10,821 bases of DNA. Origin: a virus. The first letter of the stretch is position 1. Each line of letters opens with the position of its first letter. Shown here one piece after another: positions 2,263-6,753 of the stretch. Made by a program: the position numbers and the translations under genes. The stretch lies in UHGV virus genome UHGV-1747927; one strand, written 5' to 3'. The notes beneath the pieces are model-generated. The model was not told where the DNA came from, made no database searches, and saw nothing but the letters and a program-made list of their open reading frames with translations.

Positions 2263-2441
2263 CTTGTTTTCCTCGCACGTTCTCTAAGCCACCGGATATC
2301 CCACAGGTGAGCCGTGTAATTGAAGGTTTTTACGTCAGATTCTTTTGGGATTGGCTTGCGTTTATTTCTGGAGCGTTTCGTTGGAAGGTATTTGCAGTTT
2401 TCGCAGATTATGTCGGTGAAACTTCGTCGCTGTCGTCTCAT
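2259..2441 (-). CDS. ninE: NinE-like protein (60 aa)
   Basis: A 60-aa basic protein directly after ninB with an ATGA overlap. It has the same size and position as lambda NinE, and the ICENCKYLP motif is recalled from NinE. Confidence 0.6.
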
Positions 2442-2848
2442 TCGTACCTCCTGTCGGTAAATCTGACACCCTGACCAATAGCCCAGGCTGTTGTGTACTC
2501 GATCAGACTTGCCATACGCTTCACGCTCATCTGCGCGCTGCTTTCGCGAATGTTGACGTATTCGCCTTCAAGGCCGGGCAAAACATCAGCTTCCTGCTTT
2601 GTAGCCACTGCATGACCGCTTATCAACAAAACCTTCCATTGTTCCGGTTTTAACCATTTTCCGCACCATTGAACCTGACGTGCGATATCCGCCAGCATCG
2701 CGTGAAATTTTGCGTTCTGGTCAAGGTTGCGCTTGTAGTCAGTAATGCGGATGGTAACTGGCTTGTCTTTATCGAGAGGAGTTGCGAGGATGGCGTTGAT
2801 TGCGGCTTGCTGTTGTTGCTTAGTTCGGAGGAATATTGTTTGCTTCAC
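2438..2848 (-). CDS. ninB: NinB-like recombination protein (136 aa)
   Basis: Pattern R.LDQN.K..A.L.D...QV.W.GKWL..E.WK is similar to lambda NinB as recalled. It is the first gene of the nin cluster. Confidence 0.75.
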
Positions 2849-2859
2849 TGAACACTCCT

Positions 2860-3051
2860 TTATTTTTTATGCCTGTAACCCCATTCTTCCAGCAACCTTG
2901 CGGCGTACCACCCAAGAAACAAAGGAAAGAACATTACAATGAGATATTCCCCGCCACGGTCAATGTTCGAAATTGACCAGATTACGATGTAACCAGTGCA
3001 GGACAGGAATATTACAAACCCCAAAAAGCTACTTCGTCGACTCATGCTCAC
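2860..3051 (-). CDS. Small predicted membrane protein (63 aa, two hydrophobic segments)
   Basis: ORF in a co-oriented packed array. It contains two hydrophobic stretches (FLGFVIFLSCTGYIVIW and YLIVMFFPLFLGWY). Confidence 0.4.
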   Translation of the reverse strand: MSMSRRSSFLGFVIFLSCTGYIVIWSISNIDRGGEYLIVMFFPLFLGWYAARLLEEWGYRHKK

Positions 3052-3368
3052 TCCTTCACTTTGATTCCAGCGGCGCAGATAGCCTCTACATCGCTTTCGT
3101 ATTGCGATTCTGCACCTGAGTCATAGCCAATGTGATAATCACCGGGAAGTGGGCCTTTCTTTGGCTTTTGCAGCTCAATCTCGATAGCTGCTCGCGATGC
3201 CTGCCATAAAGTCCACCACTCATTTAAGGAGTGACGAATATCCATGCTTGAAAATGCGAAGTACCTATCACCATTTCTTGCCTCGGTTATCATCTCGAAT
3301 GGTAATTTCAATTTTTTGGCAACGTATTCCTCAAACTTCTTTCTTGATTCGTCCATATCACTCTCCAT
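3048..3368 (-). CDS. Hypothetical protein (106 aa)
   Basis: Long ORF whose stop overlaps the next start (ATGA). It occupies the slot between the replication genes and ninB where lambda carries ren. Confidence 0.5.
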   Translation of the reverse strand: MESDMDESRKKFEEYVAKKLKLPFEMITEARNGDRYFAFSSMDIRHSLNEWWTLWQASRAAIEIELQKPKKGPLPGDYHIGYDSGAESQYESDVEAICAAGIKVKE

Positions 3369-3383
3369 CGATGATTTTTTGGG

Positions 3384-3566
3384 TTACCAATAATATTTGA
3401 TAGTCGCCATAATTATCGGTAGCAACGCGCAGACGACTGAAAACCGTAAAACAAAACCTACCCCCAATATGCGATATGCATTATCCCAGAGAACAAAACT
3501 CATCATCAGAAGGAATCCATGAAAAATCGCGACAAGAAATAAACTACAAATAAATGCATTTACCAT
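3384..3566 (-). CDS. Small predicted membrane protein (60 aa, two hydrophobic segments)
   Basis: ORF that begins just after the helicase terminator. It is strongly hydrophobic (FICSLFLVAIFHGFLLMMSFVLW and FSVVCALLPIIMATI). Confidence 0.4.
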   Translation of the reverse strand: MVNAFICSLFLVAIFHGFLLMMSFVLWDNAYRILGVGFVLRFSVVCALLPIIMATIKYYW

Positions 3567-3592
3567 CGGTACTTACCCCTCGCTCTTAATCC

Positions 3593-3623
3593 AATAAAAA
3601 AGGGCTACTGTGTAAATAGCCCC
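3593..3623 (-). terminator. Intrinsic terminator downstream of the helicase gene (tR2-like position)
   Basis: Minus strand reads GGGGCTA, a 9-nt loop, TAGCCC, then TTTTTTATT. It lies 27 nt after the helicase stop. Confidence 0.5.
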
Positions 3624-3649
3624 TGTTATTAGCTCAGTGATGTAGATGG

Positions 3650-5026
3650 TCATACGTCCGCCCCTTGTGCATATCGTCTGCCACGCGCAGCAGGTGCATT
3701 TGATGCTGTGCAAATCTGTCTGGCTTCATCCTGGTCACATGCAACAAAGTGTCCGTTGCAGAACCGCTGGTAAACCGTACCAAGTGAGCCAAAACGGTTT
3801 TTCGTCACGATGATTTCAGCAAATGGCGCGGCGCTACTGTTCTCGTCATATACCGCTTCCCGATAGAGCATGATGATTGAGTCTGCGTCCTGTTCAATGC
3901 TTCCTGAATCACGCAAATCTGCGTTTGTCGGGCGTTTGTTTGGTCGCTTCTCAACATCGCGCGAAAGCTGACTCAGGGAGATAACAGGCGTTTTCAGGTC
4001 TTTCGCCATCGCCTTCAGGCTTCCGGAGATGTGAGCAATTGCGAGGTCGTTGCGATCTGCTTTCGGCTTCTCAATCAGGCCAAGATAATCCGCCATGATG
4101 AGTGACAGGTTTGGATTTTCCTGTTTGTGCCGTTCTGCGATTGAGCGTATTTCTTCGACCGATAACCGCGAGGCATCGACTACCCATACATCCAAATCTG
4201 CAAGCTGACTCATGCCGTTAGCAACACGCGCCCAGCCTTCGTCATCCATCGATGCAGGATTTCGCAGTACGCTAACCGACATCCTCCCGGCGTTGGCAAT
4301 GCTTCGCTCTGCAATCTGCAATGCGCTCATTTCCATCGAGAAAATCAATACCCCGCGCCGGACGTCAGAACCAGGAATAACGCGGCTTGCAACGCCTTCG
4401 GCAATCTTCAGAGCCAGTTCGGTTTTCCCCATACCAGGACGAGCAGCGATTATCACCAGGTCTTCCGCGTTCATCCCTCCGGTGATGGCATCAAGTTCTT
4501 CGATTCCGGTCTTCAGGGTATCTGACTCTTCTCCGTTCCTCAGACGCCTGTCAAGCGTGTCAGTGTAGTCGGTGATGATTTCCCCTAACCGTACCGGTTT
4601 AACCTCGTCACGGGGCTTTCTGATGGCTGAAAGACGCTTTACAAGCTCATCCATCGCCTGACTCGATGCGTCGATGGTTCCGCTCTGAATTGGTTCACGC
4701 ATTTCATCCATGATTTCCAGCACCAGACGGCGGTGATAGTTATCCGCGACCATTCCGGCATATCCCTTCAGGTTTGCGGCACTCGGGCAGTTTTTGCTGG
4801 TCATCAGGATTGACGTGAAATGCTCCTCTCCGCACGCCTCGGCAACCATCAGCGCGTCGATTAGGTTTCTGTTTCTCGCCTGCTTGCGGATAACCTCGAA
4901 GGCTTTCCGGTAGAGCGGAATTGAAAACGCTTCCGGCTCCAGCGTTGCCAGAACGTCGCTGGCGGTTGGTGTTAATCCACCAATCAGCAGGCCACCGATA
5001 ACGCTCGCTTCGATATCCTGTCTCAT
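3650..5026 (-). CDS. DnaB-family replicative DNA helicase (458 aa)
   Basis: N-terminal DnaB-like motif (EASVIGGLL); Walker A (AARPGMGKT); and the DnaB C-terminal motifs [38 protein letters not shown]. The start overlaps the O stop (ATGA). Confidence 0.9.
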
Positions 5027-6685: not shown

Positions 6686-6753
6686 TATCACCGCTAGAGG
6701 TAAAATAGTCAACACGCACGGTGTTAGAAGTTTATCCCTTGCGGTGATAGATT
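6686..6753. promoter_or_regulatory. OR1-OR2-OR3 operators with divergent promoters pR (toward cro) and pRM (toward cI)
   Basis: OR1 is TATCACCGCTAGAGGTA (6686-6702), OR2 CAACACGCACGGTGTTA (6710-6726), OR3 TATCCCTTGCGGTGATA (6733-6749). pR -35 is TTGACT (6712..6707) and -10 GATAAT (6689..6684) on the minus strand. pRM -10 is TAGATT (6748-6753) with the cI ATG 7 nt downstream (leaderless, as in lambda). Confidence 0.85.

Follow-up and report, generated by a model that had tools for sequence, protein, structure and literature searches.

Two small predicted membrane proteins and a PF26207 protein in a variable accessory slot between helicase and ninB of a P22-like Escherichia coli prophage

What is encoded between the replicative helicase gene and ninB of a P22-like E. 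coli prophage, and do the genes found there form one system or an assembly of separate cassettes? In the window analysed here, the whole 10,821-nucleotide stretch of virus genome UHGV-1747927, this interval holds three closely spaced accessory genes on the minus strand. Prophage Gally of E. coli LF82 is ~99% identical to the window, and the upstream flanking gene is a replicative DNA helicase in the LF82 and Gally annotation; its homologues carry Pfam DnaB/DnaB_C. An initial annotation, made from the sequence, had described a 60-aa, a 106-aa and a 63-aa protein, co-oriented and tightly packed at 2860-3566 between the helicase terminator and ninB. Our analysis agrees with this: the ORFs span 3384-3566, 3048-3368 and 2860-3051 on the minus strand, between the helicase (3650-5026) and NinB (2438-2848). 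We also recovered the terminator it had placed between helicase and block (hairpin-like at 3624-3600, followed by a T-run) and its pattern of two small proteins with two hydrophobic segments around a soluble one, with GRAVY values of 1.56 (p60), 0.40 (p61) and -0.69 (the middle protein, p102). Read 5′ to 3′ on the minus strand, the order is helicase, a NinA mini-ORF with the terminator, p60, p102 (PF26207), p61 and NinB:

3650-5026, minus strand: DnaB-type replicative helicase, 458-aa ORF; upstream flank, outside the block
3573-3653, minus strand: NinA mini-ORF, 26 aa, with an ATG that overlaps the helicase TGA (ATGA); phrog_5907, E = 7e-16
3592-3624, minus strand: intrinsic-terminator-like hairpin (3624-3600) and T-run, tR2-like, inside the NinA ORF
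3384-3566, minus strand: p60, probable 60-aa two-segment membrane protein, from its ORF and hydrophobicity; RBS present
3048-3356, minus strand: p102, soluble and mostly helical; PF26207 (Phage_phiTE_015) / phrog_343
2860-3045, minus strand: p61, predicted 61-aa two-helix inner-membrane hairpin; start ATG 3045, with AAGGAG 5 nt upstream
2438-2848, minus strand: NinB, downstream flank

The block lies in an ordinary hypervariable accessory slot, which runs from the helicase gene (or from ren, where present) to ninB in the early-right (PR) operon of P22-like and lambdoid prophages. Genes of the nin region are non-essential and show tight ATGA packing (PMC8022706), and the block genes are presumably dispensable as well. 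The slot had been called accessory from the outset, and this description stands; a characterised homologue was found for none of the three proteins. The block does not occupy the position of ren itself, as had been proposed, but lies downstream of the Ren homologue where one is present (loci L105 and L032). An identical block in L105 sits behind a DnaC-type loader and Ren, and in L032, L105 and L014 Ren-like proteins of 84 and 96 aa (MTGKE...) have genes of their own, placed upstream of the block. Like the ren-ninB cargo slot of lambda, the interval belongs to the PR operon, is non-essential, and follows the replication genes and precedes ninB. The corresponding slot of K-12 DLP12 carries renD, emrE, ylcJ, ybcK, ybcL, ybcM and ylcH, then ybcN (NinB family), and likewise includes membrane proteins (EmrE and the 49-aa hydrophobic YlcJ); comparison ruled out YlcH and YlcJ as relatives of the block proteins. 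An Rfam search of both strands matched no RNA family in the region, and a repeat search of the region found none.

A fourth ORF, the 26-aa NinA (3573-3653) that holds the terminator hairpin, had been overlooked in the initial annotation. It matches the phrog_5907 profile and has the ATGA position directly after the helicase gene; phrog_5907 is labelled ‘NinA’ in HK620/HK630, and the corresponding 27-aa ORF is annotated NinA in HK630. With NinA of HK620, HK630 and P22 it shares its position, the ATGA coupling to a helicase or Ren gene and the N-terminal MTIYITEL, and the exact peptide occurs on 814 contigs. Across loci the N-terminus of NinA is conserved and the C-terminus is of three types, the C-terminal half and embedded hairpin of the window being a minority type. 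The stem here has 10 pairs (AGGGGCTATT/AGTAGCCCTT, then TTTTATTGGA), whereas most relatives have a hairpin of wholly different stem (AGGCCTGC..GCAGGCC and a T-run) at the equivalent place; both types fold at about -17 kcal/mol. The block genes would be transcribed as delayed-early genes, through N-antiterminated read-through of this terminator, and translation of p60 may be coupled through NinA.

The middle gene most likely begins at ATG 3356 (102 aa), because this ATG is preceded by GGAG at a distance of 4-5 nt, the L007 allele lacks the first ATG, and the protein has 102 aa in Gally and RefSeq; the 106-aa ORF from 3368 is the mechanical maximum. HMM searches, which had been proposed for all three proteins, classified this one, whereas p60 and p61 match no PHROG or Pfam family. 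The phrog_343 profile aligns over the full length (residues 1-106, E = 5e-28), and among 228 homologues the precomputed PF26207.1 assignment is present on all 120 matches listed, one of them at 97% identity. Our local Pfam copy evidently lacks the PF26207 model, because no family member matched it. The motifs DESR..FE, W..W.ASR.AIE and I..AG.K.KE are all present in p102, and the invariant columns of the family are D2, E3, S4, R5, F8, W48, W51, S54, R55, A57, I58, E59, I93, G97, K99 and K101. On this sequence evidence we assign p102 to PF26207/phrog_343, a large, widespread and uncharacterised phage family, with which it shares the full-length match, the invariant motifs and a position just upstream of NinB. 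It differs from the rest of the family in nothing of kind, being one particular mosaic of an ‘EYVAKKL...’ N-half and a ‘ELQKPKKGPLPGDYHIGYDSG...’ C-half. The AF2 model (mean pLDDT 74.7) comprises four helices and short strands. Compared with PDB folds it gave no match with E < 1, and the weak LacI-HTH and Dbf4 entries were rejected; a p102 profile found no relative among PDB sequences, the designed-PPR match being spurious, with no passing stretch. In BFVD, only uncharacterised phage proteins were retrieved (E about 0.01). The depositors’ label ‘similar to P22 EaD’ was discarded, as BLASTP gave no alignment to Gally EaD, and we found nothing specific in the literature on phiTE_015. PF26207 would have a separate, general phage function, apart from the roles of p60 and p61.

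p61 codes for a protein of two-helix hairpin design and is under purifying selection. Compared with a relative of 72% identity (P0007/L012), it has a dN/dS of 0.19 at a dS of about 1, its variants fall 23/11/28 on the three codon positions, and none of 20,000 dinucleotide shuffles of the region gave a similar ORF with two hydrophobic segments. Topology prediction, also proposed earlier, supports a membrane hairpin: the AF2 model places helices at 3-26 and 31-60, and the charge pattern (basic at the N-terminus, MSRRSS, and in the C-tail, YRHKK; acidic in the loop, NIDRGGE) leads us to infer an N-in/C-in protein inserted in the inner membrane. NinB starts at a GTG 12 nt past the p61 stop and has its own AGGAG. 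The exact p61 sequence occurs on 997 contigs from E. coli, Shigella and Salmonella, among which it has no conserved partner gene. Four phage records contain it, and its single occurrence among 185,579 species-representative genomes is probably a mis-binned MAG. A HMMER search of the p61 profile against 1.84 billion representatives found no relatives, and a 283-aa protein with a borderline match (E = 9.5e-4, four stretches) was treated as transmembrane bias; a fold search with the model matched nothing. Both PGAP and the Gally record omit p61. Small phage membrane proteins are systematically under-annotated and repeatedly prove to be exclusion, anti-defence or lysis-timing factors. Since p61 is unchanged on about 1000 contigs and clearly selected, it has some role in lambdoid phages that infect major pathogens, with Stx phages and the AIEC strain LF82 among the cases.

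p60, too, is likely to be a gene. The positive charges of this protein lie in the loop between its two hydrophobic segments (WDNAYR...R), which predicts an N-out/C-out orientation in the inner membrane. T makes up 55% of codon position 2, and an ORF of like length with two hydrophobic segments arose in only 27 of 20,000 dinucleotide shuffles (0.14%). None of the 13 DNA alleles or of the roughly 35 loci has a disrupted ORF, and across alleles it carries no indel, whereas its flanks do; the stop position is kept through a TAA to TGA change, and homology to other alleles begins at the SD, marking a cassette boundary. Other gene callers predict p60. The protein forms only three 90%-identity clusters among 5.8 billion proteins and is absent from the 185,579 species-representative genomes. 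In other phages its position is held by TM68 (phrog_1165; HK022, HK629, mEp235 and Stx phages), a 68-aa two-segment membrane protein directly 5′ of PF26207 that is a real gene under clear purifying selection (dN/dS 0.34). TM68 is far more widespread, with 107 phage records against one for p60 and four for p61, and is not homologous to either: hhalign among the three gave probabilities of 0.2-1.6%, ruling out a common origin. Three mutually unrelated families of small two-segment proteins use the slot in different phages.

These observations bear on whether the 183 nt are instead a T-rich spacer or regulatory region that is open by chance and possibly contains a promoter of the p102 transcript, which we regard as unlikely. 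Selection on p60 is weak: dN/dS is 0.27-0.85 pairwise, 0.57 pooled and 0.64-0.85 between divergent alleles, and of 27 distinct variants 18 change the amino acid, a share that does not depart significantly from neutrality. PGAP leaves p60 uncalled in LF82, O26 and SJC33, it is missing from the Gally record, and the lack of a PHROG or Pfam family fits the same explanation. Weak promoter-like sites lie inside p60 (-10 GATAAT ending at 3480 and 3412), and LF82 RNA-seq indicates a transcript start between helicase and p102. Set against this are the intact, indel-free ORF with its conserved stop, the rarity of such ORFs in shuffles and the T-rich second codon position.

We compared the cassettes of more than 150 related loci. 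The three genes are real and adjacent, as the initial annotation held, but they are not a fixed unit, as the cassettes recur in other orders and combinations. Absence of the ORFs from close relatives, which that annotation had named as counting against them, does occur, but as cassette replacement with no gene decay. Exchange partners are the TM68/phrog_1165 and DUF7301 cassettes, and arrangements include TM68>PF26207>p61, DUF7301>p61>p60>PF26207 and a p61 homologue alone after the helicase, without PF26207. Three short blocks within the PF26207 gene coincide with the boundaries of similarity:

3327-3356, minus strand: mosaic joint 1, inside the PF26207 gene, coding MDESRKQFEE
3170-3206, minus strand: mosaic joint 2, inside the PF26207 gene, coding W..WQASRAAIEIEL
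3048-3080, minus strand: mosaic joint 3, at the PF26207 C-terminus, coding AI(R/C)AAGIKVKE and including the SD of p61

Joint 1 is the only stretch that the window has in common (93% nt) with the otherwise unrelated PF26207 alleles of L002 and L034, and its residues are invariant in the protein alignment. Joint 2 shows identity islands of 92-100% nt with L002, L034 and L183, and module A (3604-3181) terminates there; module B (3076/3080 to 2838) starts at joint 3 in L002, L034 and L117. The PF26207 gene is a three-part mosaic, and its three conserved ~30-nt blocks are the points at which alleles and neighbouring cassettes are exchanged. Its 5′ half travels together with p60, its last ~10 codons with p61. 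They offer a concrete example of short conserved coding blocks serving as joints for lambdoid mosaicism. The block is probably not one system but a locally assembled set of accessory cassettes, each exchangeable on its own.

It is improbable that the three genes form a single functional module, with PF26207 as a soluble effector or adaptor and interchangeable hairpins upstream (p60 or TM68) and downstream (p61), for example a membrane-anchored complex or a toxin-antidote set. Three unrelated membrane families converge on PF26207 as neighbour; p60 is immediately upstream of it in all 35 IMG/VR loci, as in every complete p60-bearing locus, p61 is directly 3′ of it in most loci, and tandem arrays of the type TM68>PF>p61>p60>PF exist. 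p60 and PF26207 could be a functional pair rather than independent cassettes. However, among 76 loci a two-segment small protein lies immediately upstream of PF26207 in 42, while in 34 the upstream neighbour is soluble (wHTH-like 66 aa, DUF7301) or missing, and NinB follows directly in 45; p61 is also found after DUF7301, as well as in the locus without PF26207 mentioned above. The sampled loci are not independent, p60 alleles are at least 78% identical in amino acids so that the linkage may reflect only recent common descent, and the weak structural relatives of p102 are uncharacterised proteins of other phages. Under the cassette explanation, p60 and p61 would each work alone, on targets in the membrane, while the phage develops; as a tentative proposal, they may block DNA entry of competing phages or neutralise membrane-based host or prophage defences, as Ren does against Rex, cell killing not being a favoured role. 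Ren is an accessory-gene precedent in this slot for countering membrane-based (Rex) exclusion; it differs from the block proteins in being soluble and has no sequence similarity to them.

That p60, p61 or both damage the membrane as toxins (holin-like, Hok/TisB-like, or Abi effectors that depolarise the inner membrane) seems very improbable. Class II holins have two TM helices, an N-in/C-in topology and a charged, basic C-tail. p61, by the positive-inside rule and its AF2 hairpin, would share this layout, while p60 departs from it by the positive charges in its loop; the extreme hydrophobicity of p60 does fit a toxin, and small hydrophobic phage proteins are often toxic when over-expressed. 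In size class and one- or two-helix design, p60 and p61 resemble small inner-membrane exclusion proteins (T4 Imm, HK97 gp15, P22 SieA/SieB) and class II holins or pinholins (S21), but no sequence or fold relationship to these was detected. The block belongs to the early operon and is remote from the lysis cassette; Gally has a separate, annotated set of holin, lysin and Rz. A type I toxin would not typically have two segments and about 60 aa, Rfam revealed no antitoxin RNA on either strand, and the one antisense promoter-like site (3384-3413, plus strand) is no more than shuffles give; p61, moreover, has no constant partner. The exclusion-factor or toxin role first suggested for these genes found no support. 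Searches of Pfam, NCBIfam and PADLOC with the three proteins gave nothing meaningful (Acyl_transf_3, DUF6560 and QcrA_N were sub-threshold, hydrophobic noise), none of the four ORFs had a PADLOC match at E <= 1, and no PHROG match carried an exclusion annotation. The block proteins showed no homology to exclusion, defence, anti-defence, holin or toxin models, and no structural analogue was found; the literature yielded nothing specific on small membrane proteins in the nin region. Sie-type proteins are prophage-expressed. The region of the block is at background in LB-grown LF82 lysogens, but its p102 gene exceeds its flanks in culture medium and macrophages (PMC9928086). Overall the block holds nothing surprising in kind, and we offer it as a candidate list for experiments and not as a discovery.

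Published LF82 RNA-seq data allow expression of the middle gene to be followed; within the block, the tables quantify the p102 gene. Its level in stationary-phase LB cultures is that of the prophage background (PMC9928086 S1 Table). In macrophages it is 8-20 times above both flanking genes (PMC9928086 S1, S4 Tables): at 1 h, GALLYPH_39 has log2(fpkm+5) values of 7.08/6.56, the helicase 3.5/3.6 and NinB 3.8. GALLYPH_39 is higher in MB6 than in LB (log2FC 2.18, q = 3.7e-5), and the p102 gene also exceeds its flanks in cell-culture medium (PMC9928086). Cross-mapping is unlikely because the query region has a single place in the LF82 chromosome. These values suggest a separate transcript for the middle gene in macrophages; a model of delayed-early read-through alone does not predict a signal above both flanks. 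The block, or at least p102, might be a conditionally expressed moron active in the lysogen (lysogenic conversion or niche adaptation, for example to macrophages) rather than in lytic growth, to which we give a low probability. Absolute p102 levels are modest, differential mRNA stability in a sub-population under partial induction could account for part of the signal, and the RNA-seq authors list no moron in Gally (PMC9928086). Promoter scans of the block found no consensus promoter, only the weak sites inside p60, and promoter-like sites in the block are no commoner than in shuffles; the top matches of the scans were pR (6712) and pR′ (503). A wider proposal, which we consider a long shot, is that the helicase/ren-ninB slot is a specialised cassette array in which mosaic PF26207 joints swap at least three hairpin families. 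PF26207 and the adjacent hairpin would form a modular membrane-targeted system for phage-phage interference or counter-defence, and in Crohn’s-associated LF82, with its own macrophage-responsive transcript, this would be a cryptic, condition-specific moron overlooked by an LB-based screen. If true, independent transcription of the middle gene in macrophages would mean amending the published view that Gally has no morons.

Megablast returned a single full-length match to 2400-3800, Escherichia phage Gally (OV696608, Lederbergvirus; 98.5%), and the E. coli LF82 chromosome has one copy of 2860-3660, with 99.4% identity. All relevant genes occupy the minus strand; read from high coordinates to low, the pR/cro/cII-like genes are followed by O, a DnaB-type helicase, the three-gene block, NinB, NinE and the remaining nin genes. 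A simple PWM scan gave pR at 6712 (TTGACT-17-GATAAT) and the late promoter at 503 as its two top minus-strand matches, confirming this operon layout. The features discussed here are:

3650-5026, minus: DnaB-type helicase (1377 nt)
3573-3653, minus: 26-aa ORF, NinA
3624-3600, minus: hairpin with a 10-pair stem, then a T-run
3384-3566, minus: p60, small two-segment membrane-type protein
3048-3356, minus: middle gene (309 nt), PF26207/phrog_343 family, GALLYPH_39 in the LF82 prophage
2860-3045, minus: p61, small two-segment membrane-type protein
2438-2848, minus: NinB (411 nt)

The three block ORFs lie where the initial annotation placed them, all on the minus strand, and its description of two small two-segment hydrophobic proteins holds, with two hydrophobic segments (Kyte-Doolittle) in each and none in the middle protein. 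The observation was correct, and the ORFs are for the most part real. When dinucleotides were shuffled, an equally long ORF with two hydrophobic segments arose in 27 of 20,000 versions of the p60 region and in 0 of 20,000 of the p61 region, so the pattern is not due to chance. The middle gene most likely starts at ATG 3356 (102 aa), since GGAG lies 4-5 nt upstream, the alternative ATG 3368 lacks a Shine-Dalgarno (SD) sequence and is absent from the L007 allele, and 102 aa is the length in both the Gally and RefSeq annotations. p61 starts at ATG 3045 (61 aa; AAGGAG 5 nt upstream), with a GTG at 3051 overlapping the same SD. Among LF82 locus tags RS04850-RS04870 (NC_011993.1), RS04855 and RS04865 are skipped exactly at p60 and p61, which suggests that both were once called and later dropped on re-annotation.

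p61 is a gene. Compared with its 72%-identical relative P0007 (loci L012/L013), it shows 21.8 synonymous and 24.2 nonsynonymous changes (dS ~1.0, dN 0.19, dN/dS 0.19), and variants among 17 DNA alleles are distributed 23/11/28 over codon positions 1/2/3. The exact protein is found on 997 E. coli, Shigella and Salmonella contigs and in every case bears the label ‘hypothetical’. A variant on a gut metagenome contig (L225, 1950-2183) has an insertion or frameshift after codon 5, with a 59-aa hairpin ORF recovered from another start (MTTRLLGFVIF...); given the low coverage of the contig, this may be a sequencing error.

The status of p60 is less certain than that of p61, and we consider it probably translated. 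It is uncalled by PGAP and in the Gally record, forms only three 90%-identity clusters in 5.8 billion proteins, and has a dN/dS of 0.64-0.85 when divergent alleles are compared; of its 27 distinct variants, 18 are nonsynonymous, and the pooled ratio, ~0.57, is not significantly lower than 1. Several features favour a gene: the ORF is intact in all 13 DNA alleles, the single indel in a four-allele alignment falls upstream, in the SD region, the stop stays in place although TAA becomes TGA, homology among alleles sets in at the SD, ~25 nt before the ATG, and T content is 55% at codon position 2, against 32% at position 1 and 42% at position 3. The position of p60 is also occupied in other phages by TM68, a 68-aa two-segment membrane protein under clear selection (dN/dS 0.34 at dS ~1.1). 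One TM68 allele (VAEFMLVALKCVGV*WILL...), present in 6 fetched loci, carries a premature stop at codon 15, and the cassette is decaying in that lineage.

Pfam, NCBIfam, PADLOC and PHROG hold no family for p60 or p61, and an exhaustive HMMER search of 1.84 billion representatives with a p61 profile found no relatives. TM68 (phrog_1165) is present in 107 phage records, including HK022; profile-profile comparison showed p60, p61 and TM68 to be mutually unrelated. The AlphaFold2 model of p61 is a hairpin of two helices (residues 3-26 and 31-60; pLDDT 71), for which no informative structural neighbour was found. The positive-inside rule predicts N-in/C-in for p61 (MSRRSS..., loop NIDRGGE, tail YRHKK) and N-out/C-out for p60, whose only positive charges are at R32 and R41 in the loop and at K57.

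Along its whole length the middle protein is a match to phrog_343 (E = 5e-28), and all 228 of its homologues carry the precomputed domain PF26207 (Phage_phiTE_015); our local Pfam copy, which gave no match for any member, apparently lacks that model. The family alignment has three invariant blocks, MDESRKQFEE, W..WQASRAAIEIEL and AIRAAGIKVKE, separated by segments that exist in several unrelated versions. An AlphaFold2 model from an 18-sequence alignment is mostly helical (mean pLDDT 74.7), with no significant PDB relative by fold or sequence; in BFVD it matches only phage proteins that are uncharacterised, and those weakly (best E = 8e-3). The depositors’ label ‘similar to P22 EaD’ is unsupported, as BLASTP gave no alignment to the Gally EaD.

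We fetched more than 150 related loci via PF26207, p60 and p61. The three genes are adjacent in the window, as the initial annotation had it, but the block is not a unit: its components recur in other orders and combinations.

Architectures from replication gene to NinB in loci fetched via p60 and p61 (a contig may count under both queries)
TM68>PF26207>p61: 24 loci
DUF7301>p61>p60>PF26207: 12 loci
TM68>PF26207>p61>p60>PF26207: 8 loci
p60>PF26207>p61 (window type): about 6 loci
p60>PF26207: 4 loci
TM1_106>wHTH66>PF26207>p61: 4 loci
Other architectures: various loci

Of the 76 PF26207-fetched loci, 42 have a small two-segment protein as upstream neighbour and 34 have a soluble one or none; the gene directly downstream was NinB in 45 and p61 in 15. 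A p61 homologue stands alone directly after a helicase in L012, upstream of a NinA-like ORF. The identical block, with the same NinA and terminator, follows a DnaC-type loader and a Ren homologue in L105; the block thus lies downstream of ren rather than replacing it, contrary to the ‘ren position’ first assigned. Tandem TM68>PF26207>p61>p60>PF26207>NinB slots with two different PF26207 alleles occur in L034 (~1550-2860), L125, L137 and other IMG/VR loci. Divergent p60 alleles (L007-L011, L014-L019; L007 ~3455-3994) sit in a conserved run of TM68, an N-terminally membrane-anchored protein of 106 aa (phrog_5903), p60 and PF26207, and this run is found behind a DnaB-type helicase, a Toprim primase-helicase or a DnaC-like loader with Ren, three different replication modules.

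Breakpoints were mapped by pairwise blastn. Positions 3604-3181, running from the spacer through p60 and the PF26207 5′ half as far as the WQASRAAIE block, share 98% identity with one segment of L034, L117 and L183, and 3076-2838 (the last ~10 PF26207 codons, p61 and the NinB start) are 98% identical to another; in L034 and L117 the p61-type segment lies directly upstream of the p60-type segment, reversing the window order. Unrelated PF26207 alleles share only three ~30-nt islands (3356-3327, 3206-3170 and 3080-3048, minus strand; 91-100% identity), which coincide with cassette breakpoints, so the coding sequence acts as a set of recombination joints. The window arrangement is the outcome expected of a crossover inside PF26207 between a ‘p60>PF>NinB’ and a ‘TM68>PF>p61>NinB’ phage, which fits known homeologous recombination and mosaicism in lambdoid phages (PMC2327257, PMC3945230). 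Gally encodes RecT.

The helicase terminator proposed initially is real as a motif. It is tR2-like and lies within the 26-aa ORF, overlooked at the time, whose start codon, ATG, overlaps the TGA that ends the helicase. The ORF is a match to phrog_5907 (E = 7e-16), and its counterpart is annotated NinA in HK630 and HK620. The N-terminus MTIYITEL is conserved across loci, and the embedded hairpin has two wholly different stem sequences, each of ~-17 kcal/mol with a T-run; HK022 lacks a strong hairpin and has a longer, 33-aa hydrophobic peptide instead. NinA is joined by ATGA to the helicase (in L105, to Ren), and 6 nt separate its stop from the p60 ATG; ribosomes translating through the hairpin could therefore influence termination and couple translation of the genes downstream. 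In public Salmonella records the peptide is named ‘histone H1’, an evident annotation error spread over 814 contigs.

Genes of the nin region are dispensable and closely spaced, with ATGA overlaps (PMC8022706), and position predicts that the block would be expressed delayed-early, by N-antiterminated read-through of the terminator. In LF82 lysogens in LB at stationary phase, GALLYPH_39 is at prophage background, and the authors’ statement that Gally has no moron rests on LB data only (PMC9928086). Their tables for other conditions place it well above both neighbours: in macrophages at 1 h, log2(fpkm+5) in two replicates is 7.08/6.56, against 3.50/3.59 for the helicase and 3.82/3.76 for NinB, with raw counts of 65/63 against 14/22 for the helicase, and MB6 versus LB gives a log2FC of 2.18 (q = 3.7e-5) (PMC9928086). 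In macrophages the gene (LF82 1,011,623-1,011,931) is 8-20x above both of its neighbours, which it also exceeds in culture medium. Read-through from pR cannot produce this pattern, which suggests either a local promoter or a processed fragment of high stability. The only promoter-like sites are weak, both inside p60 (-10 GATAAT ending at 3480 and 3412). These RNA-seq data make a condition-specific moron a possible, though less favoured, reading.

For these real cassettes, whose design, shuffling and context the analysis shows, we infer a function. We favour p60 and p61 as single-acting inner-membrane accessory proteins of phage development, which would interfere with competing phage or act in counter-defence, much as Ren does against Rex. 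We rank lower the idea that they are toxins, for which we found no family match, partner gene, antisense RNA or link to a lysis cassette, and likewise that of a single three-part module, because every component occurs without the others.

The slot itself is well known to be hypervariable; p60 and p61 are accessory cassettes there, ORFans or nearly so, on either side of a protein from a known, uncharacterised family. The counterpart slot in the K-12 prophage DLP12, from renD to ybcN (NinB family), carries as cargo genes emrE, ylcJ, ybcK, ybcL, ybcM and ylcH. YlcJ (L228, 4696-4845), a very hydrophobic 49-aa protein directly after emrE, is another small membrane-type ORF in this ren-ninB slot, unrelated to p60 and p61.
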